From assembly GCA_943350875.1 (NCBI GenBank), contig CALRAL010000004.1, positions 1 through 55,008 of the forward strand: a DNA stretch of 55,008 bases, read 5' to 3'. Origin of the DNA: Candidatus Nomurabacteria bacterium. Its GTDB lineage: Bacteria > Patescibacteriota > Minisyncoccia > Phycocordibacterales > UBA9973. Positions 17,808 to 52,713 of the stretch are shown in pieces. The position numbers and the translations under genes are program-made. Position 1 is the stretch's first letter. Every line of letters begins with the position of its first letter. Under the pieces are notes generated by a model that was not told the origin of the DNA, made no database searches, and saw only the letters and a list, made by a program, of their open reading frames with translations.

Positions 17808-18260
17808 ATGCAATTCAAAGTTCCACAATTTTTAGATATAGAAGACAAGATTTTCGGGCCTTTCACCTTTAAGCAGTTCGTGTACCTCGCTGGAGGAGGA
17901 GGGCTCTGCTACATATTATTCAAACTCCTTGGATTCTTGGGAAGCTCAATACCAGTGCTCGCAGTAGCTGGATTCTCATTGATATTAGCATTCTATAGAC
18001 CAAATAATAAACCATTCTTAAATATGATAGAAGCCAGTGTAAAATATGCAATGCAAGATAAACTATACATCTGGAAAAGACGAAAAAACACAAAAGAATA
18101 CAGACAAGAAGAGGAAAAAGCTATGGAATTAAAAACAAAAATGATGCAGAAGAATGGAAAAAGATTGAGTGGAAGTAAATTGCGTGACTTGGCTTGGAGT
18201 TTGGATGTGTTAGATTTAAAAAAACCTGTCTCGACGCAAAGCGAGGAAAAATCACAATAA
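17808..18260 (+). CDS. PrgI-family (VirB3-like) small membrane protein
   Basis: MQFKVPQFLDIEDKIFGPFTFKQFVYLAGGGG followed by two TM segments. This N-terminal pattern is typical of PrgI-family T4SS components. It sits directly upstream of VirB4. Confidence 0.65.
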   Translation: MQFKVPQFLDIEDKIFGPFTFKQFVYLAGGGGLCYILFKLLGFLGSSIPVLAVAGFSLILAFYRPNNKPFLNMIEASVKYAMQDKLYIWKRRKNTKEYRQEEEKAMELKTKMMQKNGKRLSGSKLRDLAWSLDVLDLKKPVSTQSEEKSQ

Positions 18261-18264
18261 TCAT

Positions 18265-18906: not shown

Positions 18907-18927
18907 AAGTGAAAAGTTATAAAGTTT

Positions 18928-20781: not shown

Positions 20782-20806
20782 AAGAGAGTTAGAAAGCTAA
20801 CGTAGA

Positions 20807-21805: not shown

Positions 21806-21814
21806 GAAATACAA
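21776..21814 (+). repeat. Left copy of the 39-bp direct repeat flanking the BrnTA cassette
   Basis: atggaaaaagaaataaatgtcagtttttaagaaatacaa, identical to 22488-22526. Confidence 0.9.
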
Positions 21815-21832
21815 AAATGTGGATAATTAAAC

Positions 21833-21861
21833 TTGACAATGTATATACATGACGCTACAAT
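21833..21861 (+). promoter_or_regulatory. Consensus sigma70-like promoter motif at the left end of the cassette
   Basis: TTGACA (21833-21838), a 17-nt spacer, then TACAAT (21856-21861). It overlaps the only in-frame ATG/TTG starts of brnT, so either the motif or the start assignment is uncertain. Confidence 0.3.
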
Positions 21862-22162
21862 TAAAAATGAAGGGGGTCGAATAATTAAAAAAGTTGTTGG
21901 TTTTGAATGGGATAATGGAAATAAAGGGAAAAACCTTTTAAAACATCAAATAAAAAACGAGGAGTGTGAGGAAGTTTTCTTTGATCAAAACAAGAAGATT
22001 TTAAAAGACAATATTCACTCTATTAAAGAAGAACGTTATATACTGCTAGGGAAGACAAAAAAACAAAAATTAATTTTCTTAGTTTTCACCATCAGAAAAA
22101 ACCAAATAAGGGTAATCTCAGCTAGAGATCTTAATAAAAAAGAATATAAATTATATGAATAA
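21839..22162 (+). CDS. brnT: BrnT-family (DUF497) toxin
   Basis: GFEWDNGNKGKNLLKHQIKNEECEEVF...RYILLGKT...LVFTIRKNQIRVISARDLNKKE matches the DUF497 pattern. Overlaps brnA by 8 nt. The start is uncertain (TTG 21833 or ATG 21839). Confidence 0.75.
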   Translation: MYIHDATIKNEGGRIIKKVVGFEWDNGNKGKNLLKHQIKNEECEEVFFDQNKKILKDNIHSIKEERYILLGKTKKQKLIFLVFTIRKNQIRVISARDLNKKEYKLYE

Positions 22163-22415
22163 AAAAATTCCAAAATTTAAAAACGAAGCTAAAGAAAGAG
22201 ATTTTTGGTTAAAATTAGATCTGTCCAAGCATTTTAAACGATCTGATTTTGAGAAAGTGTCATTTCCTAATTTGAAACCATCTTCTCAGCCCATTTCATT
22301 GCGTCTGCCATCGCATCTTATTGTCCGAGTAAAAGAACATGCCAACGAGCTTGATATGCCTTATCAATCATTGATGAAGAAATATATCGCGCAAGGTATT
22401 TTATCAGAGGTGTAA
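22155..22415 (+). CDS. brnA: BrnA-type antitoxin (CopG/RHH-like C-terminus)
   Basis: EAKERDFW...ISLRLPSHLIVRVKEHANELDMPYQSLMKKYIAQGI is the typical BrnA_antitoxin pattern. Paired with brnT. Confidence 0.7.
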   Translation: MNKKIPKFKNEAKERDFWLKLDLSKHFKRSDFEKVSFPNLKPSSQPISLRLPSHLIVRVKEHANELDMPYQSLMKKYIAQGILSEV

Positions 22416-22425
22416 AAGCTGAGGT

Positions 22426-22442
22426 GGTGACAAATTGTCACC
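22426..22442. repeat. 17-nt perfect palindrome near the right end of the cassette
   Basis: GGTGACA-aat-TGTCACC. Same GGTNNCA..TGNNACC pattern as the ORF6N internal units. Confidence 0.8.
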
Positions 22443-22487
22443 AGTTGAAAATGCGAGCAGTAAATTAGTTAAATTAAATTAAACATA

Positions 22488-22526
22488 ATGGAAAAAGAAA
22501 TAAATGTCAGTTTTTAAGAAATACAA
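22488..22526 (+). repeat. Right copy of the 39-bp direct repeat
   Basis: Identical to 21776-21814. Supplies the start codon and first 7 codons of the downstream gene. Confidence 0.9.
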
Positions 22527-23919
22527 GAAAATAGTTTTACCTTTCTTTATACTTTTCGTATTTTTTGGTATTTCACATTATGTAAATGCAATAACATTAT
22601 CTACGATAGGAATAGATGGATCTAATTGGGGGATAAAAGCAACAGCAACAGGTAGTGACATAAGAACATATAATTTTAGTGAGATACCAAGTGTAATTAT
22701 CTATAAAGGAACCAGTATAGTAAAAACACAAAACCTCCCTAACTATGTAAATGACATTGCAAATATATTAATCACAGGTCTAGAAAAAAATACTACATAC
22801 AAAGCAGTTATAAAAAGTAACCCACCTGAACCTGGAGTTCCAATGGAACTTGCTCAGATTGAAAAAACCACAGGGGTAGCAACTCCAAGCCAAGATCCAA
22901 TAATAATAGGTATAACTCCAACTCCTTCAACTCAACCAACTAAAACTTGTTTCCAATGGGATAAAAATCCCAATAATGATACAATTTTAACCCCAGGAAA
23001 ATGGTGGTTCAGTAATTTAACTTCTTCTTATTTATATTTTTGGGGACCATATGACAGTGAAAATAATTGCAAAGATAAACTAAAAGATTTATCTGCTCCA
23101 CCAAAAGATACAGATACTTCATATACTTTACTTGCTCCACTACCTGGATTGGGGCTTGGAGATAATAAACCTTTTGAGACTGATAATAAAAAAAATCCAT
23201 GTGCTTTTGGAAACTATTTGAACATCATGATAAAGCTGATTATAGGTATATGCGCAGTGCTAGCCATGGTGATGATAGTGATGGGGGGGATAGAGTACAT
23301 GACAAGTGAACTCGTCTCTACTAAAGAGCAAGGCAAAGACACCATCACGAACGCCATCCTCGGGCTCGTCATAGCCCTCGGCGTTTTTGTCATATTAAAC
23401 ACCCTAAACCCCGACCTGCTGAAACTGTGTTTAGATAATATGCAACCAGCGACAATAACAATGCTAAGTGAAGAAGATCAACCGCAAACATATGATCTAG
23501 AAACAAAGTTATACCCCAATGGAATTAAGTTTGGTGTAAAATGGGATGATTCAGTTAGTCAAAAAGCAACTTTACCTAACTATGTAAAAATCTCTCCTCT
23601 GAAGGAATGCATAACTGTAGGACAACCAAACTGTACATCAACTAGAGGCTTAAACCCCGACAATGTAAAAACAACACAATGGGGATGCTTGTGTGATTTG
23701 GTAATTACAGGTGGAACAGAATTTTGGTTACATGGTGGTAAAAATGGAAAGACAACTCATAAACTTGATAGCGGAACTGTAGATCTACGTCTTGAAACAA
23801 AATTAAATGATTATATTAATAAATATGGGAAAAAAACTGAAGGAAAATATGGTCCAGTATATACAATAGGTAGTATTTCTTATTTAAAAGAAAATGATCA
23901 TTGGCATGTTTATAATTAA
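22504..23919 (+). CDS. T4SS-pilin-like (TrbC/VirB2-type) protein with an N-terminal extracellular domain and a C-terminal putative LAS/M15 metallopeptidase domain
   Basis: Signal/TM segment at the N-terminus. Pilin-like two-helix hairpin (NPCAFGNYLNIMIKLIIGICAVLAMVMIVMGGIEYMTS...TITNAILGLVIALGVFVILNTL). C-terminal VITGGTE...THKLDSGTVDL...DHWHV resembles the SxHxxGxAxD ... HxH zinc-ligand arrangement. Confidence 0.6.
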   Translation: MSVFKKYKKIVLPFFILFVFFGISHYVNAITLSTIGIDGSNWGIKATATGSDIRTYNFSEIPSVIIYKGTSIVKTQNLPNYVNDIANILITGLEKNTTYKAVIKSNPPEPGVPMELAQIEKTTGVATPSQDPIIIGITPTPSTQPTKTCFQWDKNPNNDTILTPGKWWFSNLTSSYLYFWGPYDSENNCKDKLKDLSAPPKDTDTSYTLLAPLPGLGLGDNKPFETDNKKNPCAFGNYLNIMIKLIIGICAVLAMVMIVMGGIEYMTSELVSTKEQGKDTITNAILGLVIALGVFVILNTLNPDLLKLCLDNMQPATITMLSEEDQPQTYDLETKLYPNGIKFGVKWDDSVSQKATLPNYVKISPLKECITVGQPNCTSTRGLNPDNVKTTQWGCLCDLVITGGTEFWLHGGKNGKTTHKLDSGTVDLRLETKLNDYINKYGKKTEGKYGPVYTIGSISYLKENDHWHVYN

Positions 23920-23925
23920 ATTTTT

Positions 23926-25353
23926 ATGACAACAAGAAATTTAACACTTTTAATAATAATTTTGATCGGAGCGGTTTTGGTGACGCTGGGCTTTTTGTAT
24001 TTTTACAAACCAGCAAACAATGATGGAACAGCTGGAAGCGCTACAAACTTCATCTCACAACTCTTCCCATTTGGTAAAAGTAAAACTGTGACAACTCCTG
24101 GAGGAGAAACTCCGGTAGATGTGTCAGGATTCGTTCCCACCCCAGTAGAGGAAATACCAAAAACAAAAATAACAAAAGTTTCTACTATGCCTATAGCAGG
24201 ATATGGAGTGTTTATGAAGGAAAGGTTTAAAGATGTGCCGGTGGTAGCAAACCCTACCCCAACCCTCCCCTTGTCAGGGGAGGGAGATATTATTAGCCCC
24301 CCTGACAAGGGGGGTAAGGGGGGTTTAATTGCCAAAGGGGATTTAGGGGGTCAGAAGGATAAAAAAGGGAAAGTTATTCCCCAAAAACCCACAGCTCCTC
24401 CTACTGAATTCGTCCCAGCTTTGAGATATGTGGACAGAACAACAGGTAACATTTATCAAACTTACGCAGATAAAATTGAAGAAAGGAAATTCTCTGGCAC
24501 AATCATACCAAAAGTCTATGAAGCATATTTCGGGGACAAAGATGAGTCTGTAGTGATGCGATATTTGAAAGAAGACGATAAAACAATAGAGACTTTCGTC
24601 GGGGCCTTGGCCAAAGAATTCCTAGGAGCAGACTCTGATGGTAGTACAGATGTAAAAGGTTCTTTCTTGCCAGAAAATATCACTGACATGAGCATGTCTC
24701 CAGATGGGAAGAGAATGTTTTATTTATTTAATGTAGGCAATGGTACGACAGGAATAACTGCTGAAGCATCGGGTGGCCAGAAGAACCAGGTTTTCGATTC
24801 GCCATTTACAGAATGGTTGTCCTTTTGGCCAAGCAACAAAATGATTACTCTGACTACCAAACCCTCTGCCAATGTGCCAGGGTTTATGTACGCTATAGAC
24901 CCAGACAAAAAAGATTTTAATAGAATATTAGGAGGAATAAATGGCCTAACCACGCTCACCAGCCCTGATGGTAAGCTAGTATTGTTCGGTAACAATAATT
25001 TATCACTCAATATTTACAACATTGCGACTGGAAACATAAATCAAGTAAGTGTGAAAACACTCCCTGAAAAATGTGTTTGGGGTAGAGCAAGCGACAAAGT
25101 ATACTGTGCAGTACCAAAATCAATTGATGGAGCATCCTACCCAGATGATTGGTATCAAGGAGAAGTTTCATTTGGAGATGAAATATGGAGGATAGATGCC
25201 ATAAATGGCAATGCTGATATTTTAGGAGATCCTAGCTCTATGGTGGGTGGGGAAGAGGTGGATGGCATCAAACTTTCACTAGACGAAAATGAAGATTATC
25301 TATTTTTCGTGAACAAAAAGGATTCTTACCTTTGGAAATTAAACTTAAGGTAG
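23926..25353 (+). CDS. Membrane-anchored protein with TolB-like beta-propeller repeats
   Basis: N-terminal TM segment (LTLLIIILIGAVLVTLGFLYFY). Repeats SPDGKRMFY and SPDGKLVLF are typical of WD40-like beta-propeller (TolB/PD40) repeats. Confidence 0.6.
   Translation: MTTRNLTLLIIILIGAVLVTLGFLYFYKPANNDGTAGSATNFISQLFPFGKSKTVTTPGGETPVDVSGFVPTPVEEIPKTKITKVSTMPIAGYGVFMKERFKDVPVVANPTPTLPLSGEGDIISPPDKGGKGGLIAKGDLGGQKDKKGKVIPQKPTAPPTEFVPALRYVDRTTGNIYQTYADKIEERKFSGTIIPKVYEAYFGDKDESVVMRYLKEDDKTIETFVGALAKEFLGADSDGSTDVKGSFLPENITDMSMSPDGKRMFYLFNVGNGTTGITAEASGGQKNQVFDSPFTEWLSFWPSNKMITLTTKPSANVPGFMYAIDPDKKDFNRILGGINGLTTLTSPDGKLVLFGNNNLSLNIYNIATGNINQVSVKTLPEKCVWGRASDKVYCAVPKSIDGASYPDDWYQGEVSFGDEIWRIDAINGNADILGDPSSMVGGEEVDGIKLSLDENEDYLFFVNKKDSYLWKLNLR
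24259..24351. repeat. Composite C-run/G-run hairpin element in frame in the linker of the TolB-like protein
   Basis: ccaaccctccccTTGTCAggggaggg, a 12-nt spacer, ccccccTGACAAgggggg, then ggggatttaggggg. Homologous to 6071-6132. Encodes PTLPLSGEGDIISPPDKGGKGGLIAKGDLGG. Confidence 0.75.
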
Positions 25354-25448
25354 AGCTTTTTACGGTACGGATTTTTTGAAGCTTAAAAAATCCTGAAGTT
25401 TTCGGCTCGACAGCCTCAAAACCCCTGCAAAAGCTCTACCTTAAGTTT
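25341..25448 (+). repeat. Stop-codon-anchored hairpin element, copy 1: 20-bp perfect inverted repeat clamping a conserved 68-nt core
   Basis: Arms aaacttaaggtagagctttt (25341-25360) and aaaagctctaccttaagttt (25429-25448). The core has hairpins GGATTTTTT-gaagctt-AAAAAATCC and GTTTTC-GGCT-cgac-AGCC-TCAAAAC. Confidence 0.85.
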
Positions 25449-27296: not shown

Positions 27297-28652
27297 ATGG
27301 ATACAAAACAGCTTTGGAAAAATTGCTTGGTAGAAATAGAGGAAGGTATGTCTAAGGCCAATTTTAGTACCTGGTTTAAAAATACATCTATAATAAAAGA
27401 AGAATTGGGGATAATCTATGTTGGGGTGCCAAATGAATTTGTTCGAGATTGGTTAAAAAATAAATATCACAAACTCATAACCAAAACCGTAGCCGATGCA
27501 TATGAGAGTATGCGTGCTGTTGAATACTTAATAACAAAAATTGAAACAAATAAACAAGAATTGCCAAAATTAAATGAGGCTTTTGTAAATGTAAACAAAG
27601 AGTTACCATTGCGAGATTTGTATATAGACAAAGAAGACAATTTAAATCCTCGGTACAAGTTTGATTCTTTTATTGTTGGCTCATTTAATGAACTTGCATA
27701 TTCGGCTGCACAGCATATCGTGGAAAAGCCAGGCATAAATTACAATCCATTCTTTGTCTATGGAGGTACAGGATTGGGTAAAACCCACTTACTCCAAGCG
27801 ATAGGAAATGCTATAAAAGAAAAGTATGCGGATAAAAAAGTCCATTATATAACACTGGAAAAGTTTGCTACTGATCTTGTAAATTCTTTTCAAGCAGGAA
27901 ACAATAAAGCAAATGCTTTTAAAGAAAAATACAGAAAATATGATTTATTAATCATAGATGATATCCAATTTATTGGTAAAATGGAGACAACCCAAGAACA
28001 ACTGTTCCATACTTTTAACACTTATCACGAGAACAATAAACAAATTATATTTTCTTCAGATAAACATCCAAACTACATACCAGAATTAGCAGACAGATTA
28101 AAATCTCGTTTTGCTCAGGGCATGATAGTAGATATATCCGAACCAGCATACGAATCCAGACTAGCCATACTAAAAGTAAAACTACAAGAACAAAATATAG
28201 ATTTGGAGCCTGAGATATTGGAATATGTTGCATCAACAATAGAAGGGAACATCAGAGAATTGGAGGGTAGCTTAAATACCATAATATGCCAATATCGTTT
28301 AAAAAATAGGCCTCTTTCATTGGCTGAAGTAAAAACCCTAATGAAAAATAACATAAAACCAAAGAAAAATGTTTCTATAAAAGACGTAGTAAAGGTGGTA
28401 AGTGATCACTATAACCTAGATGAAGCTTCTATTTACGAAAAAACAAGAAGAAAGGAAATAGTCCGGGCTAGACAAGTGGTAATGTATCTCCTGCGGGAAG
28501 ATTTCAATGTTTCTTATCCTCTGATTGGGCAGAAACTAGGGGGCAAGGACCACACCACGGTAATCCATTCATATTTAAAGATTAAAAACGACTTGAAAAA
28601 CGACCCACAACTATTGCAAGAAATAGAAACAATCCGCACAATGTTTAAATAA
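27297..28652 (+). CDS. dnaA: Chromosomal replication initiator DnaA
   Basis: GGTGLGKTHLLQAIGN (Walker A), LLIIDDIQF, and the C-terminal DNA-binding signature IGQKLGGKDHTTVIHS. Confidence 0.93.
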   Translation: MDTKQLWKNCLVEIEEGMSKANFSTWFKNTSIIKEELGIIYVGVPNEFVRDWLKNKYHKLITKTVADAYESMRAVEYLITKIETNKQELPKLNEAFVNVNKELPLRDLYIDKEDNLNPRYKFDSFIVGSFNELAYSAAQHIVEKPGINYNPFFVYGGTGLGKTHLLQAIGNAIKEKYADKKVHYITLEKFATDLVNSFQAGNNKANAFKEKYRKYDLLIIDDIQFIGKMETTQEQLFHTFNTYHENNKQIIFSSDKHPNYIPELADRLKSRFAQGMIVDISEPAYESRLAILKVKLQEQNIDLEPEILEYVASTIEGNIRELEGSLNTIICQYRLKNRPLSLAEVKTLMKNNIKPKKNVSIKDVVKVVSDHYNLDEASIYEKTRRKEIVRARQVVMYLLREDFNVSYPLIGQKLGGKDHTTVIHSYLKIKNDLKNDPQLLQEIETIRTMFK

Positions 28653-28680
28653 GTTAAAATAATTAACAAGTTATCATAAA

Positions 28681-28751
28681 GATATTAAATAAAAATTTTT
28701 AAAATAAACCAATAATCTAAACAAGAAAAACAATTTATCCACTTATCCACA
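28681..28751. promoter_or_regulatory. Candidate oriC core in the dnaA-dnaN gap: an AT-rich tract plus tandem DnaA boxes
   Basis: AT-only tract at 28681-28718. TTATCCACT and TTATCCACA overlap by one nt at 28735-28751. Confidence 0.6.
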
Positions 28752-28794
28752 AGACTAATAGTATTAATAGATTAAATATATAAGATATAAACAT

Positions 28795-29892
28795 ATGAAG
28801 ATAGAATGCGGGATAGAACAAATCAAGAATGCAATTTTACAAACAGAGAGAATTACTGGGAAGAATTTAACTTTACCAATATTAAGCTCCATCCTTTTGA
28901 TTGCTTCCGGGAAGAATTTGAAAATGAGGGCTACAAATTTAAGTTTAGGAATAGAGATTGAGATTCCTGCCAAAATAGAAGAAGAAGGTACTGTAGCTGT
29001 GTCTGGTTCTGTTTTGTCTGGAATGTTTTCAAACATAGTTCAAAACGAAAGCATAAGTTTGTTTACAGAAGACAGCAATCTTTTAATTAAAACAAAGAAA
29101 AGTAAAATAAAATTGAAATGCAATCCTTATGAAGATTTTCCAACTATTCCAAAAGTTTCCGGAATAGAGTTAGAGATAGATGCTAAGAAAATAATGGATG
29201 GGATTAAGTCTGTGTACTATAGTTCTTCGGTTTCTGATATAAAACCAGAAATATCTAGTGTTTATATTTATTCAAATGAAGAAAATTTAGTTTTCGTTTC
29301 TACGGATTCTTTCAGATTAGCGGAAAAGAAGATAAAAGTTAAATCTTTACAAGAAATATCTGGAATCTTAATTCCTTTTAAAAATATACCTGACATTTTA
29401 AGGGTTTTTGGTGAATTTTCTGGTAATATAAAAGTATCTTTTGATAAGAATCAAATATCTTTTTCTTCAGACAGCGTGTACCTTACTTCCCGAGTTATAA
29501 ATGGAGTATTCCCGGATTATAGGCAAATTTTACCAAAAGAATCAAAAACAGAAGTGGTTGTTTTAAAGCAAGATCTATCAAATGCTTTAAAATTATCAAA
29601 TATCTTTTCAGATAAATTTAATCAAATAAACTTTTCTATAAAACCAAAAAGTAAAATATTTGAATTGTCCTCTCAAAACAACGATGTGGGGGAGAATAAA
29701 ACATACTTAGATGCAGTTTTGTCTGGAGAGGACATCGAGCTTTCTTTTAATTACAAATATTTCCTTGATTGTTTTCAATCTATAAATACTGACAGTATAT
29801 CTATCAAGCTAAATCAGTCTAGTAAGCCCATGGTAGTATCGAGCTCTTCTGACAACAGCTTCACTTATTTGATAATGCCCATGAATAGATAA
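28795..29892 (+). CDS. dnaN: DNA polymerase III beta sliding clamp
   Basis: 365 aa, directly after dnaA. Ends ...YLIMPMNR, typical of beta clamps. Confidence 0.88.
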   Translation: MKIECGIEQIKNAILQTERITGKNLTLPILSSILLIASGKNLKMRATNLSLGIEIEIPAKIEEEGTVAVSGSVLSGMFSNIVQNESISLFTEDSNLLIKTKKSKIKLKCNPYEDFPTIPKVSGIELEIDAKKIMDGIKSVYYSSSVSDIKPEISSVYIYSNEENLVFVSTDSFRLAEKKIKVKSLQEISGILIPFKNIPDILRVFGEFSGNIKVSFDKNQISFSSDSVYLTSRVINGVFPDYRQILPKESKTEVVVLKQDLSNALKLSNIFSDKFNQINFSIKPKSKIFELSSQNNDVGENKTYLDAVLSGEDIELSFNYKYFLDCFQSINTDSISIKLNQSSKPMVVSSSSDNSFTYLIMPMNR

Positions 29893-38937: not shown

Positions 38938-41343
38938 ATGGAAGATAAAAAGAAGTTATTAGTACTCCTTGATTCTCACGCGATAATACACCGCGCGTAT
39001 CATGCCTTGCCGGATTTTTTGTCTTCCAAAGGCGAACCGACAGGGGCTTTGTATGGGCTTTCCAATATGCTGATGAAGATTATTTCTGATTTGAAGCCGG
39101 ATTATATTGTGGCTTGTTATGACCTTCCAGGGAAAACTTTCCGCCATGAAGCATATAGAGATTACAAAGCGGGCAGGATAAAAGCTGATGACGCGTTAAT
39201 TTCTCAACTAAAAAGTTCACGCAAGATTTTTGAGGCATTTAATATTCCTATTTATGATTCGCCTGGGTTTGAAGCAGACGATATTTTGGGGACAATAGTA
39301 GAAGAAATGAAGGGAAATGTAAACATAATAATTGCTTCAGGCGATATGGATACGATGCAATTAGTGGATGATAAAAAAGTACAAGTTTATACACCCAAGA
39401 AAGGAATTACTGACACTATTTTATACGACGAGAGGGCTGTTTTTTCACGATTTGGTTTCAAGCCAGAACTTTTACCAGATTATAAAGGATTACGAGGAGA
39501 CCCGTCAGATAACATTATCGGCATAAAAGGAATTGGTGAAAAAACAGCCACGAATTTGATTATAAATTTTGGAACGATTGAAGAAATTTACAGAGAGTTA
39601 AAAGTTGGAAGTAAAAAGTTTAAAGAAATTGGATTAACAGAACGTATAATTAATTTATTAAAAAATAATGAAGAAGAAGCAGTGTTTTCTAAAACCTTGG
39701 CGACGATCAGGCGTGATGCACCGATACATTTTGTTTTATCACAGAAAACCTTTTGGGAAAATGCTGATTTAAAGAAAATTGAGCAAACTTTCGTTTTATT
39801 TGAATTTAGGAGTTTATTTGCCCGTCTGAGGAACTTTTTTGGTGCCAATCAGAAGTTTCCTGAAGATGACAAAACTTTGCTTCCCCAAATTTCTCCAGAA
39901 AGACTGCAAGAAACCTCAATCGCCCTTTGGCTTATAAATTCTGATATGACGAATCCGAATTTAGAGGATATTTTGCTCTATGCCAATACTCCTGCCCGCA
40001 ATGCTTTCAGCATAGCTGATGCAGGCGGGGATGCTTTTGAAACAGCACGAGAGTTTATCTTTAAAAAACTGAAGGAAAATAAATTAGAGAAAATTTATGA
40101 AGAAATTGAAAAGCCAATTATTCCAATAGTGAAAGAAATGGAGGATCATGGTGTCCTGATAGATAAAAAGTATTTTGAAAATTTGTCAAAAGAATATCAT
40201 ATAGAATTAGATAAACTTACAAAGAAAATATATGAAATGGCAGGCACCGAGTTTAATATCAATTCCCCAAAGCAGATGGGTGAAGTTTTGTTTGGTAAAA
40301 TGGGTATAAAGTCAGGATCAAAGATGGCTAAAAAGGGTGCAAGTGGTAATTTTTCCACAAAAGTTTCTATTTTGGAAGAATTAGAAGATGGGAATCCAAT
40401 CATCAAAGAAATTCTTGCTTATAGAGAATTACAGAAATTACTTTCGACGTATATTGATGTGATTCCTAAAATAACAGGGGAAGATGGCAGGATCCATGCG
40501 AAGTTTTTACAGAACAATACCACTACTGGCAGATTCTCTTCCCAAGATCCGAATTTACAAAATTTACCAATAAAAAGTGAACTTGGCAGAAGAATCAGAG
40601 ACGGTTTTATTGCTAAAAATGGGTACAAACTCTCTGCTTTTGACTATAGTCAGATAGAACTTCGGATGGTGGCGATACTCTCGGGAGATAAAAAGATGAC
40701 ACAGATTTTTAAAGAAGGAAAAGACATTCATGCAGGTGTGGCATCTTTTGTTTTTGGAGTACCAATAGATAAAGTGGACAAAGAAATGCGTCGTAAAGCG
40801 AAAGTGATAAACTTCGGCATTATATATGGTATGGGAGTTTCTGCTTTAAGGAAGAATCTTAATGGAACTCGAGAAGAAGCACAAAAGTTTTATGATAATT
40901 ATTTTAATCAATTCTCTGGAGTGCGAGATTATTTAGAAAGTGTGAAAAGTTTTGCAATCAAGAATACTTATACAGAGACATTGTTTGGTAGACGAAGATA
41001 TTTTCCAAATATAAATTCCAAAATGCCTTTTTTAAAAAATATGGCAGAGCGCACAGCTACTAACGCTCCAGTGCAGGGGACAGCAGCAGATGTCATCAAG
41101 CTCGCTATCAGGTATGCCTACGAAGATTTAAAAAAGGCTGGATTATTAGAAAAAGCGCATTTAGTTCTCCAGATTCATGATGAATTGGTGTATGAAATAG
41201 AGGAAAACACGCTTGAAAAAGCAAGTAAAATTATAGAAAATGCTATGCAGACAGTGCTCACGAGGTCTTACTTTATGTATACAGGGGAGATCCCCATTTT
41301 AGTGCATTTTGGTTCGGGAAATAATCTAGGGGAAGTGAAGTAG
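38938..41343 (+). CDS. polA: DNA polymerase I (5'-3' exonuclease + polymerase domains)
   Basis: N-terminal LLVLLDSHAIIHRAYHA...GIKGIGEKTA (5' nuclease). C-terminal DYSQIELR, RRKAKVINFGIIYG and QIHDELV polymerase motifs. Confidence 0.92.
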   Translation: MEDKKKLLVLLDSHAIIHRAYHALPDFLSSKGEPTGALYGLSNMLMKIISDLKPDYIVACYDLPGKTFRHEAYRDYKAGRIKADDALISQLKSSRKIFEAFNIPIYDSPGFEADDILGTIVEEMKGNVNIIIASGDMDTMQLVDDKKVQVYTPKKGITDTILYDERAVFSRFGFKPELLPDYKGLRGDPSDNIIGIKGIGEKTATNLIINFGTIEEIYRELKVGSKKFKEIGLTERIINLLKNNEEEAVFSKTLATIRRDAPIHFVLSQKTFWENADLKKIEQTFVLFEFRSLFARLRNFFGANQKFPEDDKTLLPQISPERLQETSIALWLINSDMTNPNLEDILLYANTPARNAFSIADAGGDAFETAREFIFKKLKENKLEKIYEEIEKPIIPIVKEMEDHGVLIDKKYFENLSKEYHIELDKLTKKIYEMAGTEFNINSPKQMGEVLFGKMGIKSGSKMAKKGASGNFSTKVSILEELEDGNPIIKEILAYRELQKLLSTYIDVIPKITGEDGRIHAKFLQNNTTTGRFSSQDPNLQNLPIKSELGRRIRDGFIAKNGYKLSAFDYSQIELRMVAILSGDKKMTQIFKEGKDIHAGVASFVFGVPIDKVDKEMRRKAKVINFGIIYGMGVSALRKNLNGTREEAQKFYDNYFNQFSGVRDYLESVKSFAIKNTYTETLFGRRRYFPNINSKMPFLKNMAERTATNAPVQGTAADVIKLAIRYAYEDLKKAGLLEKAHLVLQIHDELVYEIEENTLEKASKIIENAMQTVLTRSYFMYTGEIPILVHFGSGNNLGEVK
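39991..40030. repeat. CCTGCCCGC...GCAGGCGGGG element (40 nt) in frame in polA
   Basis: cctgcccgcaatgctttcagcatagctgatgcaggcgggg. Homologous to 5134-5175. Confidence 0.65.
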
Positions 41344-43507: not shown

Positions 43508-45805
43508 ATGGATAAAAATCAACCTGCCCGCCAAAATGGAGGGGCCAATATCTTTAAATTACATAGTCCATTTCAACCTAGCGGCGATCAGCCGAGTGCT
43601 ATTTCAAAGCTGATGGAAGGATTGAAAAAGGGGATGAAGAAACAAACATTGCTCGGAGCTACAGGTACAGGCAAGACTTTTACCATGGCAAATGTGATAG
43701 CTCAAAATAATAAGCCAACTTTGGTGATAGCTCACAACAAGACTCTCGCTGCTCAGCTAGCTCAAGAGTTTCGAGAATTCTTTCCAGAATCTGCGGTACA
43801 TTATTTTGTTTCTTATTATGATTATTATCAACCCGAAGCTTACATGCCTGCATCTGACACGTATATTGAAAAAGATGCGCAGATAAATAAAGAGATAGAC
43901 AGGCTTCGTCATGCATCCACACAGGCCTTGCTCACAAGGCGTGATGTCATAATTGTTGCTTCTGTATCTTGCATTTATGGACTCGGTTCTCCGGATGAGT
44001 ATGAGAAGGTAAATTTGAAACTTGAATCAGGAATGAAGATGGATCGTCTGACTTTGATGAAAAGGCTCATAAACATTCATTTTGAAAGGACAAATGCGGA
44101 TTTGAGCCCGGGGCAGTTTCGTTCTATTGGGGACAGAGTAGAATTTATGCCAGTTTCAGAAACACTAATGTATCAAGTTGAAATGAAACTTGGGAAAATT
44201 TCTAAAATTACAAAAGTTGACCCTATCTCTTCAAAGATTTTAGCAGAAGAGAAAAATTTGTTTGTTTTCCCAGCCAAACATTTCATAACCGAAGATAAAA
44301 AGAAAAAGATTGCTTTGGTAAATATTAAAAAAGAATTAGTGACTCAATTAAAGAAATTTGAGAAAGAGAAAAAGTTTCTTGAGGCAGAGCGTATAAAACG
44401 TAGGACAAATTATGATTTAGCGATGATAAAAGAAGTAGGGTATTGTAATGGTATTGAGAATTATTCACGACATTTGTCTGGCAAGAATGCTGGTGATCCA
44501 CCGGAGACGCTACTATCTTACTTCCCCTCCTTGTCGAGGAGGGGATTGAGGGGTGGTGATTTAGAAAAGAACCACCTCGCCCTAAAGGGCACTCCTCCTC
44601 AGAAAGGAGGAGATATTCCTGATTTCCTTACCATCATTGATGAATCGCATGTGACATTACCCCAACTTGGGGGAATGTACGCAGGGGATGTTTCGAGAAA
44701 AGAAACCCTTGTGGAATATGGTTTTCGCCTTCCTTCAGCAAAGGATAATAGACCGTTAAAATATAAAGAATTTGAGGAAAGGGTGGGGCAAGTGATTTAT
44801 ACGAGTGCTACTCCGAGCGATGTAGAAAGAAATACGAGTGAACAAATAGTGGAACAAATCATCCGCCCTACAGGATTAATTGATCCAGAAATAATTGTGA
44901 GACCGGTATCGGCGAAGAGTTATCCTTTCCGTCGCTCGCACTCCATCTTGGAAGGGCAAGAAAGTTCTGGTCGTAGCGAATACTCCTCCAAGGATAACTC
45001 TTCGCCTTACCTTGGCCAAATACAGGATTTCATTATAGAGGCAAAGAAAACTATTAAAAAAGGTTTTAGGGTTTTAGCTACGACACTGACAAAGAAAATG
45101 GCGGAAGATTTGTCAGTTTATTTGAAGGATAAAAAAATCAAGGCAGAGTATTTGCATAGTGATATAAAAACAATTGATAGGATAAAAATAATTACACAAT
45201 TACGAAAAGGAGAGTTTGACATTTTGGTGGGGGTGAACCTCTTGCGTGAAGGATTAGATTTACCTGAAATTGCTCTCATAGCTATTTTTGATGCAGACAA
45301 GGAAGGATTCTTAAGGTCAGAAACATCACTTATACAGACTATTGGACGTGCAGCGAGAAATGTAGAAGGAAAAGTTATTTTGTATGCTGATGTTATGACA
45401 AAGTCACTTGAGAAGGCAATAGGTGAGACAACTCGCAGGAGAAATATACAGATTGCTTACAATAAAAAACATAATATTACTCCGAAAACTATTATTAAAA
45501 ATATAAAAGACATAACAGAAGAAATGGAGAGCAAACATGGTAAAGCAGTAAATGCAGAACTTTTGCTCGATGTGGAGCTTTTCAAAAAAGCTTTTGCCAA
45601 AGACAAAAGCAATAAAGGTAAAAATGAATCAGATTCAATAAAGAATATGGCTCTTTCTGATGAAGATAGGAATAATCTGGTGTACGATAAAATAATAAAG
45701 ATAAAAGAAAAAGAAATGAATAAAGCAGTAAAAGAATTAGACTTCGAAACCGCCGCGATATTGCGGGATGAAATTGTTGTATTAAAAAAGAAATTAGAAA
45801 ATTAA
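43508..45805 (+). CDS. uvrB: Excinuclease ABC subunit B
   Basis: LLGATGTGKTFTMANVI, YYDYYQPEAY, GIENYSRHLSG, DESHVTLPQ, and the C-terminal UVR motif FETAAILRDEI. Confidence 0.95.
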   Translation: MDKNQPARQNGGANIFKLHSPFQPSGDQPSAISKLMEGLKKGMKKQTLLGATGTGKTFTMANVIAQNNKPTLVIAHNKTLAAQLAQEFREFFPESAVHYFVSYYDYYQPEAYMPASDTYIEKDAQINKEIDRLRHASTQALLTRRDVIIVASVSCIYGLGSPDEYEKVNLKLESGMKMDRLTLMKRLINIHFERTNADLSPGQFRSIGDRVEFMPVSETLMYQVEMKLGKISKITKVDPISSKILAEEKNLFVFPAKHFITEDKKKKIALVNIKKELVTQLKKFEKEKKFLEAERIKRRTNYDLAMIKEVGYCNGIENYSRHLSGKNAGDPPETLLSYFPSLSRRGLRGGDLEKNHLALKGTPPQKGGDIPDFLTIIDESHVTLPQLGGMYAGDVSRKETLVEYGFRLPSAKDNRPLKYKEFEERVGQVIYTSATPSDVERNTSEQIVEQIIRPTGLIDPEIIVRPVSAKSYPFRRSHSILEGQESSGRSEYSSKDNSSPYLGQIQDFIIEAKKTIKKGFRVLATTLTKKMAEDLSVYLKDKKIKAEYLHSDIKTIDRIKIITQLRKGEFDILVGVNLLREGLDLPEIALIAIFDADKEGFLRSETSLIQTIGRAARNVEGKVILYADVMTKSLEKAIGETTRRRNIQIAYNKKHNITPKTIIKNIKDITEEMESKHGKAVNAELLLDVELFKKAFAKDKSNKGKNESDSIKNMALSDEDRNNLVYDKIIKIKEKEMNKAVKELDFETAAILRDEIVVLKKKLEN
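44524..44612. repeat. Modular GC-rich multi-hairpin element (89 nt) in frame in uvrB
   Basis: CCCCTCC-ttgtcga-GGAGGGG; GGTGGT..ACCACC; GCCC-taaa-GGGC; CTCCTCC-tcagaaa-GGAGGAG. It lies between the ETLLSYFP and DFLTIIDESH blocks. Confidence 0.75.
44911..45006. repeat. 96-nt (32-codon) palindromic element in frame in uvrB
   Basis: Perfect 17-bp terminal inverted repeats: GGCGAAGAGTTATCCTT (44911-44927) and AAGGATAACTCTTCGCC (44990-45006). Confidence 0.85.
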
Positions 45806-45952
45806 ATAACTTTTTGCTATAGTGTATCGATATACACCCCCTAAGAATAAGGCGGGGTGTGAATGTGTTATATATGGATATAGACCCCGCAAGAATTTTC
45901 CAGATAGCTTATGGGGTTATGTAATAGTAAAGTATTAAATAATATTAATTAT

Positions 45953-48682
45953 ATGAGTAAAAAAGAAGAAAATTCAAACGGGGCAAGTAAAATAATAGTA
46001 AAAGGGGCTCGTACGCACAACCTCAAGAATATAAATGTCGAAATGCCAAGAAATAAAATGCTAGTTATTACTGGTGTATCTGGGAGCGGTAAGTCATCCC
46101 TTGCCTTTGACACCATCTTTGCTGAAGGACAGAGGAGGTATGTGGAGAGTTTGTCTTCTTATGCGAGGCAATTTTTAAATCAAATGCCAAAACCTGATGT
46201 GGATGAGATAACAGGCCTCTCCCCGGCTATATCTATCGATCAGAAATCAAGGTCAAATAATCCACGTTCGACGGTGGCAACGATTACAGAGATATATGAT
46301 TATCTGCGTGTGATGTATGCGCGCATCGGGCACCCACACTGTCCCATCTGCGGGGAAGAAATAAAAAAACTTTCCAATGAAGAAATTTTAAATTTTGTCC
46401 TCGAAAAGGTCAAGAATTTCGAGAAGAAAAATTTTTCTGGCTTGACCCTTCCCGGAGTACTGGGTGGGACCCACACCATTCAAAATTCTTCCTCTCGAAA
46501 TTCTAAAAACAAAAAGAAAGTGATGGGAGTAGAATGGGATGAAACAGAGATAAATATTTTTGCGCCCGTGGTGAGGGGAAGAAAGGGTGAATATTATCAA
46601 CTTCTTTATGATTTGCTTGGGAAAGGTTTCTCTGAAATTCGTCTAGATGGAGCTATGAAGAAACTCCGTGACAGAGTCGTCTTGTCTAAGACCAAAGCGC
46701 ATAATATCGATGTATTGGTGGATAGTTTTATGATACATGAATTTAATGACGATAAAGAAGCGAGTAGGATGCGCCTTGCTGAGGCCATAGAGCGTGCGTT
46801 ACTCGAGTCAGATGGATTAGTATCTATAAAAATAGATAAAGAAGAGTTTATTGTGTCTGCAAAATTCGCATGTAAGAATGATGGGTTTTCTTTTCCTGAA
46901 ATAGAGCCGAGACTTTTTTCTTTTAACTCTCCATATGGGGCATGTACTACTTGTAATGGACTTGGTACCAAATATTTTGGTGGAGATGAACCGTGTGACC
47001 TATGTCATGGAGCACGTCTTCGCTCTGAAGCATTAAATGTATTTCTTACGACCTCCCGCCCAGACCTAGGGTCAAATAATAAAAAAGAAAAGTCCCTAGG
47101 TCTGGGCGGGCATGGTCTAAATATTCTCGATATTGCTTCTTTGTCTATAAAAGATGCATGTGATTTCTTCAAAAGTTTAAAACTTTCCGAAAAAGAAAAA
47201 GAAATATCATTGCCAGTGGTACGTGAGATAGAAGACAGACTACAATTCATGCTTGATGTAGGACTCGACTACTTACAACTTTCCCGTAAAGCGAATACAC
47301 TCTCAGGGGGGGAGGCGCAACGTATTCGCCTCGCTTCGCAACTTGGTTCACGCCTCGTCGGTGCGTTGTATGTACTCGATGAGCCGACGATAGGTCTGCA
47401 TCAGCGAGATAATGATAGATTAATAAAAACTTTGTTAAATTTGAGAGATTTAGGCAATACTATTTTGATAGTTGAGCATGATGAAGATACTATCTACGCT
47501 TCTGATTATATTGTGGATATTGGTCCAAAAGCCGGAGTACACGGTGGAGAAGTTATAGTGTCTGGAGATTTGTCTGATTTACTAACTGCCAGGAAGAATA
47601 CGAGTAATTCTAGAACGCTCGGGTATTTACGTGAAGAGTTAAAAATAGAAACTCCAGAAAAGCGTCGTGAAGCTAAAGGAGTTCTCCGAATAGCTGGAGG
47701 AAAAGTTTTCAATATTAAAAATATGAATGTAGAAGTTCCTCTCGGGGTGATGACATCTATTACAGGAGTATCTGGATCAGGTAAAAGCTCTTTGATGTAT
47801 GAGATTTTATATAAGAATCTACAAGCACGACTCGAACGACAATACCGCACGGCCAAGATATTTAATTGTAGTTCTTTTTCCGGTACAGAATATTTATCAC
47901 GGGCTATTTTGATTGATCAGTCCCCAATAGGGAGGACCCCAAGGTCAAACATAGCTACATATACTGGTGCTTTTACCCATATACGTGATTTATTTGCTAC
48001 TACAGAAGAAGCTCGATTGCGAGGGTGGAAGGCAAACCGTTTTTCTTTCAATGTGAAAGGTGGACGCTGTGAAGCCTGTGAGGGGAATGGGGAAATAGCT
48101 GTGGAGATGCATTTCTTGCCGACTGTATATGTGACCTGTGATGTATGTAATGGAAAAAGATTTGATAAAGAAACATTAACAGTAAAATATAAAAAGAAAA
48201 ATATTCATGAAGTTTTACATATGACAGTAGAAAATGGGCTTATCTTCTTTAAAGATATTCCTGCTATTTCTGATAGATTGCAGACTCTTTTTGATGTAGG
48301 ACTCGGGTATCTAGAGCTTGGGCAGTCTGCGACGACACTCTCAGGAGGAGAAGCTCAACGTGTAAAAATATCTAGTGAGCTCTATCGTCCACACTTAGAA
48401 AAAACTATTTATCTGCTCGATGAGCCGACAGTGGGGCTACATTATGATGATGTAGTTAAACTTTTAGAAGTTTTAAATAAACTTGTATCAAAAGGGAATA
48501 CTGTGGTGCTTATTGAACATAATTTGGATATAATAAAAAGTTCTGATCATATAATAGATATTGGGCCTGAAGGAGGAGTGCATGGTGGGAATTTGGTTGC
48601 CAAAGGCACACCCGAAGAAGTAGCTAGTAATGCCAAAAGTTATACTGGGAAATATCTTAAAAAAGCTCTACGAACCAAGTAG
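45953..48682 (+). CDS. uvrA: Excinuclease ABC subunit A
   Basis: [46 protein letters not shown], a second ABC module [10 protein letters not shown]...[10 protein letters not shown], and zinc-finger cysteines. The ATG at 45953 (MSKKEEN) is preferred over the track start at 45911. Confidence 0.95.
47055..47110. repeat. Hairpin element with perfect 17-bp arms inside uvrA
   Basis: CCCGCCCAGACCTAGGG (47055-47071), a 22-nt A-rich loop, then CCCTAGGTCTGGGCGGG (47094-47110). Confidence 0.85.
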
Positions 48683-50011: not shown

Positions 50012-50508
50012 AAAAAGAAAATACAAAAGAGAATATAGTTATATTGCATGATATACGAAGCGTGGAGAATGTGGGGGCGATGTTTCGCACGTCTGATGCT
50101 GTAGGTATAGATAAAATATACATTACTGGATATACGCCGACACCGCTAGATAGGTTTGGCAGGAAAAGGGGAGACTTGGCAAAATCAGCATTGGGGGCCG
50201 AGGAGTTCGTGCTTTGGGAGCAGAAGAAGATGGTGTGTCCTCTAATTGCTAAATTAAAACGGGATGGGTTTACTGTTATTGCCATTGAGCAAGATGAAAA
50301 ATCAGTAGACTATAAAAAAATTTCCGCCAAAGGCGGACCAGCCTATGGCTGGAAAAAACTGGCTTTCATCATGGGCAATGAAGTTTCTGGAATTCCTGAA
50401 AATATTTTAAAAAAATGTGACATCATCGCTGAAATTCCGATGCGAGGCAAAAAGGAATCACTGAATGTTTCTGTCGCGCTTGGGGTTGTTTTATTCGCAG
50501 TATTATAA
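50008..50508 (+). CDS. SpoU/TrmH-family RNA 2'-O-methyltransferase
   Basis: NVGAMFRTSDAVG, FIMGNEVSGI, IPMRGKKESLNVSVALGVVLF (SPOUT motifs). Confidence 0.8.
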   Translation: MKKENTKENIVILHDIRSVENVGAMFRTSDAVGIDKIYITGYTPTPLDRFGRKRGDLAKSALGAEEFVLWEQKKMVCPLIAKLKRDGFTVIAIEQDEKSVDYKKISAKGGPAYGWKKLAFIMGNEVSGIPENILKKCDIIAEIPMRGKKESLNVSVALGVVLFAVL

Positions 50509-50596
50509 TTTTAGAGCACGGATATTTTTTTGCTAAAAAATTCCTCGTGCTCGCGCTAGTCGCGCTCCCAAGTCTCTAAAATCATAATACTGCGAA
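50494..50596 (+). repeat. Stop-codon-anchored hairpin element, divergent relative (23-bp arms, 1 mismatch)
   Basis: Arms ttcgcagtattataattttagag (50494-50516) and ctctaaaatcataatactgcgaa (50574-50596). The core cacggatatttttttgctaaaaaattcct... resembles the copy 1 core. The left arm contains the last codons and stop of the TrmH-family gene. Confidence 0.7.
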
Positions 50597-50605
50597 TATC
50601 TAATA

Positions 50606-50709
50606 GCTGAGGGTAATACTTTTGCAGGGGTTTTGAGCTCGACGGAGCGAAAACTTCAGGATTTTTTAAGCTTCAAAAAATCCGTACCGTAAAAAGTATT
50701 AGCCTAAGC
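50606..50709 (-). repeat. Stop-codon-anchored hairpin element, copy 2 (minus orientation)
   Basis: Read on the minus strand, the 50624-50690 core equals the copy 1 core except inside hairpin 2. Arms at 50606-50623 and 50692-50709 (18 bp, 2 mismatches). It starts at the mutM stop codon. Confidence 0.85.
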
Positions 50710-51653
50710 TATTTCTGGTGTGAATCACAAAAATGTGTACTTCTGCTATTGATAATTTTTCTTTTTATCGTGCCAGTACAATCTTTTTTCTGACATTTTT
50801 CTCCAGCTCTTTGGTAAGCTTTATGATGGAGTTGGAATTTACCTCGCAGTCCATAAATATTCCTATAATCTGACATAGAATCTCCACCAAAATCTATGCC
50901 TTTTGAAAGTGTTTCTTTTATTGCCTTTAACATCAATATCATTTCTTTTCCTGTGATTTTTGAAGCGGGTCTTTCAGGATGTACTCCTATGCGCCACAAT
51001 ATCTCGTCTGAATAGATGTTACCTATTCCGGCTATCACAGACTGGTCCATCAATACTGTTTTTGTTTTACCTTTTGGTTTTTTTGATAGACATTTTTTTA
51101 ATTCTTTTAAATCAAAACTTTTTAAAAGCGGTTCCGGACCAATGCCGTCTAAATGTTTACTTTCGTGCATAGTTTTTGTATCTAGTGTTGTTATCTTGCC
51201 GAATTTTCTAGTATCACAGAAAACTAAATGTTTACCATTGGATAAAATAAAAACAAAATGTATAAATCTGTTATAAGGGTCATGTAAGGGGGTCTTTTCT
51301 CCGTCAGGTATCCAAAAAGGACGGTCCTTTAGAGAGCCTCCCCAAGGACCGTCCTTAAAGAGCCCAAATTTGTATTTTCCATACAGCAAATGCCCAGTCA
51401 TCTTCATATGAACCAGAATAGTCTTTTGATTACTCAAATTTATTAGTATATTTTTCGCTCTCCTTTCTGCACTAATTATTTTCTTTCCAGTTACTTCTTT
51501 TTTGAAAAATTTAAAATACTTTGTATTTGCAACAGTGTCGTTTTTCCTTTTATCTTTAGTATTTAAATCAGTCCAGACATCTTTAATGGTGAGTCCTACG
51601 ACTTCCTTTCTTAAACCTCTCGTAGTTGTCTCTACTTCTGGTAGTTCTGGCAT
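50709..51653 (-). CDS. mutM: Formamidopyrimidine-DNA glycosylase (Fpg/MutM)
   Basis: MPELPEVETT N-terminus, H2TH region, C-terminal zinc finger CQKKDCTGTIKRKIINSRSTHFC. Confidence 0.9.
   Translation of the reverse strand: MPELPEVETTTRGLRKEVVGLTIKDVWTDLNTKDKRKNDTVANTKYFKFFKKEVTGKKIISAERRAKNILINLSNQKTILVHMKMTGHLLYGKYKFGLFKDGPWGGSLKDRPFWIPDGEKTPLHDPYNRFIHFVFILSNGKHLVFCDTRKFGKITTLDTKTMHESKHLDGIGPEPLLKSFDLKELKKCLSKKPKGKTKTVLMDQSVIAGIGNIYSDEILWRIGVHPERPASKITGKEMILMLKAIKETLSKGIDFGGDSMSDYRNIYGLRGKFQLHHKAYQRAGEKCQKKDCTGTIKRKIINSRSTHFCDSHQK
51316..51356. repeat. Two AAGGAC-N-GTCCTT palindromes in frame in mutM
   Basis: AAAGGAC-g-GTCCTTT (51316-51330) and AAGGAC-c-GTCCTT (51344-51356). Encodes part of FKDGPWGGSLKDRPFW. 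Confidence 0.75.
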
Positions 51654-52326: not shown

Positions 52327-52578
52327 ATGCCAATAATTAAATCAGCTAAAAAAGCTATCCGTGTGTCTTTACGCAAAAAGGCTATAAATGACAGCCGAAA
52401 GCGTGCGATGAAAGATATAATCAAGAAAATAGAGAAAACTGTAAAAACAGACAAATCTGAAGCGGTTAAGATGCTTTCTACTGCTTTTCAGACTATAGAT
52501 AAAGCATATAAGAGGGGGGTTATTAAGAAAAATAACGCTGCTAACAAGAAATCACGTTTATCAAAGTTGGTTAGATAG
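52327..52578 (+). CDS. rpsT: 30S ribosomal protein S20
   Basis: MPIIKSAKKAIRVSLRKKAINDSRKRAMK, a basic 83-aa protein. Confidence 0.88.
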   Translation: MPIIKSAKKAIRVSLRKKAINDSRKRAMKDIIKKIEKTVKTDKSEAVKMLSTAFQTIDKAYKRGVIKKNNAANKKSRLSKLVR

Positions 52579-52691
52579 AAAGTTAAAAATTTTGTTTTCT
52601 AGGGTACGGATTTTTTTAAGCTTAAAAAAATCCTGAAGTTTTCGCTCCGTCGAGCTCAAAACCCCCTAAAAACAAAATTTTTAACTTTCTA
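52576..52691 (+). repeat. Stop-codon-anchored hairpin element, copy 3 (about 28-bp arms with one bulge)
   Basis: Arms tagaaagttaaaaattttgttttctaggg (52576-52604) and ccctaaaaacaaaatttttaactttcta (52664-52691). The core shares hairpin 1 and the hairpin-2 variant with copy 2. Confidence 0.85.
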
Positions 52692-52713
52692 AATCACAAA
52701 TCTTGCTTACCTT

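Follow-up and report, generated by a model that had tools for sequence, protein, structure and literature searches.

Rickettsia palindromic elements (RPEs), RPE-1 and its relatives, were reportedly described in 2000 by Ogata et al. To our knowledge, RPE families are conserved along the whole length of the element. Most known cases of palindromic repeats surviving in essential genes come from Rickettsia and a small number of other bacteria, and the origin of these repeats, their spread, and their preference for excision-repair and replication genes are unexplained. RPEs have been reviewed (PMC10969869), and together with intragenic repetitive extragenic palindromic sequences (REPs) carrying GTAG/CGTC tags they concentrate in UvrABC, UvrD, PolA, RecBCD, and tRNA synthetases, a concentration whose cause was left open (Di Nocera et al. 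2013, PMC3733652); in R. conorii, uvrB is interrupted at two sites (PMC3733652). Here we describe a 96-nt palindrome that is inserted in frame in uvrB of a bacterium of the Patescibacteria/Paceibacterota, Nomurabacteria type (G+C ~36%). It lies in a 55,008-nt stretch of DNA (contig CALRAL010000004.1 of assembly GCA_943350875.1), hereafter the window, and it extends the phenomenon to the Patescibacteria. The anatomy of the element bears on the questions just raised, as it separates a part that is copied, a core conserved as DNA, from a part that is made on site, a stem that tracks synonymous changes of the host gene.

A palindrome at the start of helicase domain 3 of UvrB

The gene that carries the palindrome encodes a protein with the Pfam domains UvrB, UvrB_inter, Helicase_C, and UVR (Table 1). 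The two arms are complementary at 17 of 17 nt (100%) across a 62-nt spacer, and as a single strand positions 44905–45012 fold at −45 kcal/mol, compared with −26.3 ± 3.4 in dinucleotide shuffles (z = −5.5; 0 of 200 folded as stably), which bears out a preliminary description of the element as a 96-nt in-frame palindrome with perfect 17-bp arms. The hairpin reaches into host codons, as GGTA (44905–44908, host codons P-V) can pair with TACC (45008–45011, host codons Y-L) across a small bulge. The inner 10 nt of the 5′ arm (44918–44927) match a semi-conserved inner stem of the family described below. Self-complementarity had also been claimed for the interior; two 5-bp helices can indeed be drawn there, but they are weak and invariant across copies, as is another inner pairing of the core suggested by RNAalifold.

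Chimeric reads can create palindromes, and an assembly or sequencing artefact had been raised as a caveat. Logan contigs from two lake-water metagenome runs, however, match 44584–45600 with 0 differences and at flat depth. Because two independent run assemblies agree in this way, the palindrome is real and not an assembly artefact; the same core, moreover, is found in related copies from dozens of unrelated assemblies, and the probability of an artefact is virtually nil.

Aligned with solved UvrB structures, the protein shows two in-frame inserts, seen as gaps at query residues 341–371 and 468–499 (query 372–467 aligns with chain residues 332–427, and query 500–671 with 426–597). Between RP and GQI there are 2 residues in solved UvrB and 36 in the window protein; the blocks that flank the palindrome are thus nearly contiguous in characterized UvrB proteins, as the preliminary description had stated. 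The insert follows a strand whose last residues are IVRP and precedes a helix that opens with GQIQDF, at the beginning of helicase domain 3 (PDB residues 427/428). In an AlphaFold2 model, residues 469–502 are coil with a predicted local distance difference test score (pLDDT) of ~30, in a model whose overall mean is only moderate (62.7), and the insert at the first site (residues 345–368) has pLDDT below 50. The predicted peptide is hydrophilic, with many Ser, Arg, and Glu residues, and would yield the tryptic peptide SHSILEGQESSGR. As modeled, the insert fits a tolerated surface loop that is predicted to be disordered. A clean in-frame insertion in a UvrB loop stands, but the gain is not the 32 aa (96 nt) first proposed: relative to close relatives that lack an insert, the gene has gained 84 nt net (the DP-to-GQI distance is 135 versus 51 nt), and in filled versus empty alleles of close relatives the element replaces a loop of 4–6 residues, with no clean split.

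The palindrome is the only one of its kind in the window. No further copy was found there with the arm 17-mer at up to 3 mismatches (0.15 matches expected by chance), blastn-short, tblastn, or an nhmmer profile of the family, and its sequence is, as noted earlier, unlike that of the C/G-run hairpins elsewhere in the window.

A family that shares its core and not its ends

The first sign of a family was a peptide, xLRRSHS(I/V)LEGQxxSGRSE(D/Y)SSE, that recurs at two places when the 120 closest UvrB proteins are aligned: site 1, after LSYFP, and site 2, after IVRPVS, where the window element sits. Occupancy of the two sites is patchy, with protein lengths from 697 to 792 aa. In the DNA of these relatives, the peptide corresponds to a nearly invariant core, CTCkCCGTCGyTCGCACTCyrTCTTGGAAGGGmAAG-n5-TCTG-n3-GyAGCGAAkACTCCTCyrAG, flanked by arms that differ from copy to copy. 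Relatives with a similar segment that lacked inverted repeats would have spoken against a palindromic insertion; the similar segment is present, yet always with inverted repeats, whose sequence differs each time.

Pattern scans yielded 21 genome loci and 52 metagenome loci, with no match in viral contigs, and a profile search over 78 loci gave 68 distinct copies, 1–3 per related locus. Titled genome records with the core are from Paceibacterota, Nomurabacteria, or Patescibacteria, plus a few labeled Saccharibacteria. Long open reading frames (ORFs) contain 65 of the 68 copies, and 63 of these 65 have the same orientation and frame, reading xRRSHSILEGQxxSGRSEYSSE. The hosts, assigned by sequence and Pfam, are uvrB (two sites), polA, uvrA (two sites), uvrC, cca, leuS, ileS, and the C terminus of carA; one further place is intergenic. 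The commonest host site is in polA, in the linker after the 5′–3′ exonuclease domain (an automatic tally of 22 at this site counts two leuS copies in error and leaves out two from polA). One metatranscriptome contig, the only one on a related polA locus (7968–8146 of locus L042; 182 nt, depth 2), starts inside the 3′ arm of the element and is too thin to interpret. The CCA-adding enzyme accounts for 13 copies, located in its HD domain; in this cca subfamily the variable stretch is longer by one base, which puts the conserved 3′ half (AGCGAATACTCC...) into another frame (SQRILLRA). In two copies, one in cca (locus L043) and one at uvrB site 2 (locus L066), the core is inverted at a site otherwise occupied in the forward direction, and both copies are still open.

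The preliminary description called the element MITE-like. A classical MITE (miniature inverted-repeat transposable element) would descend by deletion from an insertion sequence and be moved by a transposase recognizing the 17-bp terminal inverted repeats, and the small size, palindromic form, and perfect inverted ends of the window copy would suit one. The ends, however, differ in 68 of 68 copies whereas the interior is conserved, which contradicts the conservation of terminal repeats that defines such an element. Target-site duplications are absent from the filled-versus-empty comparisons, and in the window there is no direct repeat at the junctions (...GGTATC / element / TTACCT...). No longer parent element was found among the metagenome-scan loci, where the 3′ half of the core lies next to each match to its 5′ half, and Pfam shows no transposase domain, Y1 transposase included, in the window ORFs. 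With one copy in the 55 kb of the window, copy number is low as well. An in-frame palindromic insertion is what remains of the original term, and we regard a classical MITE as extremely unlikely.

The core is conserved as nucleic acid

Fourteen genomes with the element at uvrB site 2 allow conservation to be compared by codon position. Identity at positions 1/2/3 is 0.84/0.88/0.42 in the upstream host codons and 0.85/0.92/0.53 in the downstream host codons but 0.85/0.83/0.83 in the core. Among codons for the same residue, third-position identity is 87% in the core versus 43% and 52% in the host flanks. The core is thus conserved as nucleic acid and not as a peptide, and the conserved unit common to different sites is ~62–70 nt of core with ~10 bp of inner stem.

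One could imagine instead that the element is a peptide module of benefit to the host, a shared loop motif, RRSHSILEGQ..SGRSEYSSE, through which repair proteins would interact or be regulated. Of 65 genic copies, 63 keep one frame and one peptide even though the core is open in other frames too, and the hydrophilic, Ser/Arg/Glu-rich composition would be suitable. This idea is nonetheless extremely doubtful, as the three codon positions are equally conserved with synonymous sites nearly invariant, the 3′ half is in a different frame in the 13 cca copies, two copies are inverted, the segment is predicted to be disordered, and presence is patchy among close relatives. Because the core is equally conserved at the three codon positions and the cca 3′ half is in another frame, the peptide is a by-product. 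The bias toward one frame most likely reflects which frames yield a tolerable loop.

A programmed inversion switch was also considered: flipping the core keeps the window frame open, and it would give 44 of 64 copies a stop. No excision or inversion joints were seen in the assembled contigs of the DNA runs.

The closing stem is copy-specific and often built on host codons

We analyzed the stem in an ungapped alignment of 49 canonical copies (alignment A1). In the outer helix, each of the 23 pairs has changed on both sides, 84% of stem cells are paired compared with 32–44% when the partner column is slid, and 367 cells show double changes compared with 127 ± 9 in shuffles. The median number of paired positions is 19–21 at elements versus ~4 at random places in the same loci. 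Uninterrupted stems peak at 21–22 bp, with a range of 17–26, wherever the host-codon boundary falls, and the window copy, at 17, is short. Across the family, the outer-stem columns hold 4–6 pair types each, and identity in the flanks is at background level. The share of G·T among non-Watson-Crick stem cells is 13.9%, compared with 17.3% expected; as G·T pairs are not enriched, the complementarity looks like that of a DNA palindrome and not of a selected RNA helix.

The source of the complementarity can be seen most clearly at uvrB site 1. There the 3′ arm spans the conserved host codons P-D-F-L, and the 5′ arm mirrors the synonymous variants of CCN GAY TTY YTN: CCT GAT TTT TTG is paired with AAAAAATCAGG, CCT GAT TTC CTG with GGAAATCAGG, and CCC GAC TTC CTT with GGAAGTCGG. 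At uvrB site 2, the stem covers TAY CCN GGN CAG ATT (Y-P-G-Q-I) to a depth that varies between genomes. In polA it is the opposite arm that seems to be host-derived. The window polA, which has no core at the position occupied in ~20 relatives, reads CAG AAG TTT CCT GAA GAT there, a match to the 5′ arm of the copy in locus L012; this stretch is possibly an ancestral host flank or possibly a remnant of an element. Often, then, one arm consists of essential host codons and the other is their reverse complement.

A stem that covaries might also point to a functional structured RNA within the mRNA (a regulatory hairpin, an RNase III site, a ribozyme, or a small intron), perhaps one that coregulates excision-repair genes. 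Conservation of the core at the nucleotide level, the long covarying closing helix, the concentration of copies in uvrA, uvrB, uvrC, and polA, and a stem length of about two helical turns could all be explained in this way. What makes the proposal quite unlikely is that G·U is not enriched in the helix, that the inner helices show no covariation, and that two inverted cores and a deletion derivative (see below) are tolerated. The openness of 63 of 65 genic copies in one frame is likewise something that excision from RNA would not need. At the gathering threshold, an Rfam scan of the window returned two tRNAs and nothing else, and in 44700–45200 nothing relevant was found even at E ≤ 10.

Turnover among relatives

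Cores are more alike within genomes than within sites: those at different sites of one genome are 90% identical, compared with 83% for the same site between genomes (permutation p < 1e-4), and for the variable stretch the values are 88% and 76%. On a tree of the 120 UvrB proteins (unweighted pair group method with arithmetic mean), the distribution calls for a minimum of 22 state changes at the first site and of 24 at the second, and UvrB proteins that are 94% identical can be unlike in occupancy. Two of the relatives, P0035 and P0108, have inherited an internal deletion of 63 nt, which spares the arms and the final 9 nt of the core. Precise excision footprints were considered for these two alleles and ruled out, as those 9 nt remain.

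At uvrB site 2, alleles that bear an insert, of whichever palindrome, mostly continue with Y-P-G-Q-I, and insert-free alleles mostly with Y-K-G-Q-I. P, S, or L stands at this position in a few insert-free alleles, which may be former carriers.

Such patchiness on the UvrB tree could be the work of homing-like horizontal transfer, in which the element would move together with flanking uvrB by transformation and homologous recombination, the conserved gene providing homology arms. A core far less diverged than host synonymous sites would be expected from such transfer, and the difference between Y-P-G-Q-I and Y-K-G-Q-I alleles would agree with it. Co-conversion of host flanks, however, left no signal: synonymous identity among carriers stays at 0.37–0.55 in every bin up to 120 codons away, as it does in alleles without the element. 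Because carriers resemble one another no more in the host codons beside the element than elsewhere, recent transfer together with flanking gene sequence is not supported. The arms and junction positions also vary among copies at the same site, and we consider homing-like transfer very unlikely.

A proposed mechanism

We think it probable that the element belongs to a low-copy family of selfish, hairpin-forming DNA of Paceibacterota that sits in frame in loops of housekeeping genes, mostly those for DNA repair, and is most likely translated through as a disordered hydrophilic loop. The arms would be made, and kept perfect, by copying at the DNA level, with intrastrand or nascent-strand template switching at the hairpin during replication as the likeliest process. 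Template switching can generate perfect reverse-complement arms in one event, fix stems, homogenize and expand arms, and invert spacers (PMC8794818, PMC8604942, PMC13100816). It would account for arms that are Watson-Crick only, for the tracking of host synonymous changes, for the one-sided reach into essential codons, and for the two inverted cores, which it predicts (PMC8604942). Cores would be homogenized or re-copied among the few sites within a genome, for example by gene conversion, and genome-specific cores would follow from such exchange between the copies of one genome. Selection on the host proteins would leave in-frame, stop-free copies in tolerant loops.

Several observations weigh against this proposal. 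No mobilizing enzyme or autonomous element was found in the window ORFs or the metagenome-scan loci, and movement is inferred from the distribution and the within-genome likeness alone. Open-ended template switching does not predict a stem length as narrow as ~21 bp. That a low-copy core is kept across genomes whose synonymous sites are saturated exceeds what a decaying parasite would show and implies some constraint. Clustering in the polA-uvrB-uvrA-uvrC neighborhood could reflect local copying or a host function. Finally, retention of the insert in mRNA and its translation are predictions: the runs that hold the window are DNA only, and one aquifer metatranscriptome contains a relative, but its contigs cross no element.

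A bolder version, which we hold to be unlikely though worth stating, is that Paceibacterota carry DNA elements (at least three families in the window) that dispense with end-recognizing transposition. In this version a few permissive sites would receive copies of a core, which would each time gain a ~21-bp stem templated from the local flank by fold-back synthesis or template switching; alternatively, the hairpin might be kept by the host, for example as an invertible or processable switch in excision-repair genes. If true, either form would explain why a low-copy core is constrained at the nucleotide level, why the stem has a measured length, and why such palindromes concentrate in uvrABCD and polA, as has been noted across bacteria.

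Our favored proposal, selfish hairpin DNA with templated arms, has the merit that the anatomy itself points to a DNA-level templating mechanism, which can be tested by comparative genomics. On the practical side, such inserts inflate and fragment protein alignments of candidate phyla radiation (CPR) genes and break assemblies.

Other palindromes and gene context in the window

The window has in-frame palindromes in uvrD, uvrB (twice), and uvrA (twice), and a possible remnant in polA (Table 1). At uvrB site 1, which in relatives holds the family found at site 2 of the window, the window carries an insert made of short G/C-run hairpins. Contig depth rises from ~13 to 53–60 at 44564–44607 and several contigs break there, and the G/C-run unit is therefore multicopy in the genome.

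A core combined with a unique stem is not confined to the family of the uvrB palindrome. An intergenic family of this architecture has three copies in the window, with a more distant relative, and a third family interrupts a UvrD/PcrA helicase gene. The core of the third family is GGGTCGCTGTCTG...GCGCTGCCTCTCGGCyCGTCrGCCTGCGAGACACCCC, with arms of 17 bp in the window and 24 bp in locus L013. At least two further families of the same architecture in the window suggest that the arrangement is general in these genomes and not peculiar to a single element. Two short hairpins share sequence with each other; one is at the 3′ end of an rRNA adenine dimethylase gene and the other is in frame in ORF 23926–25353.

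Elsewhere in the window are a nucleotidyltransferase/HepT-like pair of the toxin–antitoxin type (7598–8366) and, at 17808–23919, PrgI, a TraG/VirB4-like ATPase, and type IV secretion system pilin domains. Because dnaA-dnaN are present (27297–29892), the window is probably near the replication origin.

Table 1. Positions of the uvrB palindrome, its parts, and other palindromic features of the window
Feature	Position	Strand	Remarks
Host gene uvrB	43508–45805	+	765 aa; from ORF list and Pfam domains
Palindrome in uvrB (site 2)	44911–45006	+	96 nt; in frame from third base of codon 468
5′ arm of closing stem	44911–44927	+	GGCGAAGAGTTATCCTT; copy-specific; columns 14–30 of alignment A1
3′ arm of closing stem	44990–45006	+	AAGGATAACTCTTCGCC; exact reverse complement of 5′ arm
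Family-conserved core	44924–44993	+	CCTTTCCGTCGCTCGCACTCCATCTTGGAAGGGCAAGAAAGTTCTGGTCGTAGCGAATACTCCTCCAAGG; nhmmer profile match 44925–44992, 78 bits
Unpaired interior of window copy	44928–44989	+	Read as FRRSHSILEGQESSGRSEYSSK
Largest foldable extent	44905–45012	+	Minimum-free-energy fold
polA, element position of ~20 relatives	39829–39918		ORF 38938–41343; reads RNFFGANQKFPEDDKTLLPQ, DNA CAGAAGTTTCCTGAAGAT; no core
uvrB site 1 insert	44528–44620		Codons 341–371; SLSRRGLRGGDLEKNHLALKGTPPQKGGDIP; short G/C-run hairpins, in frame
Intergenic core-plus-unique-stem family, copy 1	25341–25448	+	Core ~68 nt, CGGTACGGATTTTTTGAAGCTTAAAAAATCCTGAAGTTTTCGCTCCGTCGAGCTCAAAACCCC; 20–22-bp arms, different in each copy
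Intergenic family, copy 2	52562–52705	+	
Intergenic family, copy 3	50602–50713	−	
More distant relative of intergenic family	50492–50598		
Third core-plus-unique-stem family	4153–4270		ORF 3113–5200 (UvrD/PcrA helicase); read as ...GSLSVRARTALPLGSSACETPRQ...; also at uvrB site 1 of L013 and uvrB site 2 of L020
uvrA palindrome 1	46413–46504		ORF 45911–48682; 92 nt, 23-nt arms 91% complementary, in frame
uvrA palindrome 2	47055–47110		ORF 45911–48682; 56 nt, perfect 17-bp arms CCCGCCCAGACCTAGGG, in frame
Short hairpin 1	6065–6129		Shares CCCCTTGTCAGGGG / CCCCTGACAAGGGG with short hairpin 2
Short hairpin 2	24267–24312		

Comparison with known systems

RPEs are the closest parallel. Like the patescibacterial element, they are palindromes (~100–150 nt) inserted in frame in unrelated housekeeping genes of bacteria with small genomes; in both cases a conserved peptide is read through (here by prediction), the positions are compatible with the fold, and no transposase is known. 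Unlike in RPEs, only the core and ~10 bp of inner stem are conserved here, whereas the outer stem is unique to each copy and consists partly of host codons. Copy number is also much lower and the phylum is another one, and the likeness noted here is one of description.

With the intragenic REPs the element shares its gene set, as uvrA, uvrB, uvrC, uvrD, polA, leuS, and ileS are hit here. REPs, however, are 20–40-bp hairpins with conserved stems and a terminal tetranucleotide tag, whereas the present element has a conserved loop region of 62 nt and a variable stem. CGTC and GTAG/GCAG (GYAG) do occur, but inside the core, away from any hairpin foot and not in the defined REP geometry. The REP/RAYT system also includes a tyrosine transposase, and the window has none of the Y1 type. 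The MITEs of other bacteria (Correia/NEMIS, ERIC, BOX, and RUP) are similar in being small, non-coding, and hairpin-forming, and at times they are intragenic with in-frame fusions; they are defined, however, by terminal inverted repeats conserved in the family and by target-site duplications, both of which are absent in the patescibacterial element. We know of no described family that joins a conserved loop region to a terminal stem made from local sequence.

The inverted repeats left by template switching match the element in that arms made in one step and inversion of the spacer correspond to Watson-Crick arms that track host codons and to the two inverted cores. Template switching has been described, however, as a general mutation process at ordinary inverted repeats and not as the source of the site-specific stem of a repeated element (PMC8794818, PMC8604942, PMC13100816).

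Reports of such elements in CPR/Patescibacteria were not found in the searchable literature. The uvrB palindrome is best described, in functional and descriptive terms, as an RPE-like or intragenic-REP-like element in a new phylum.

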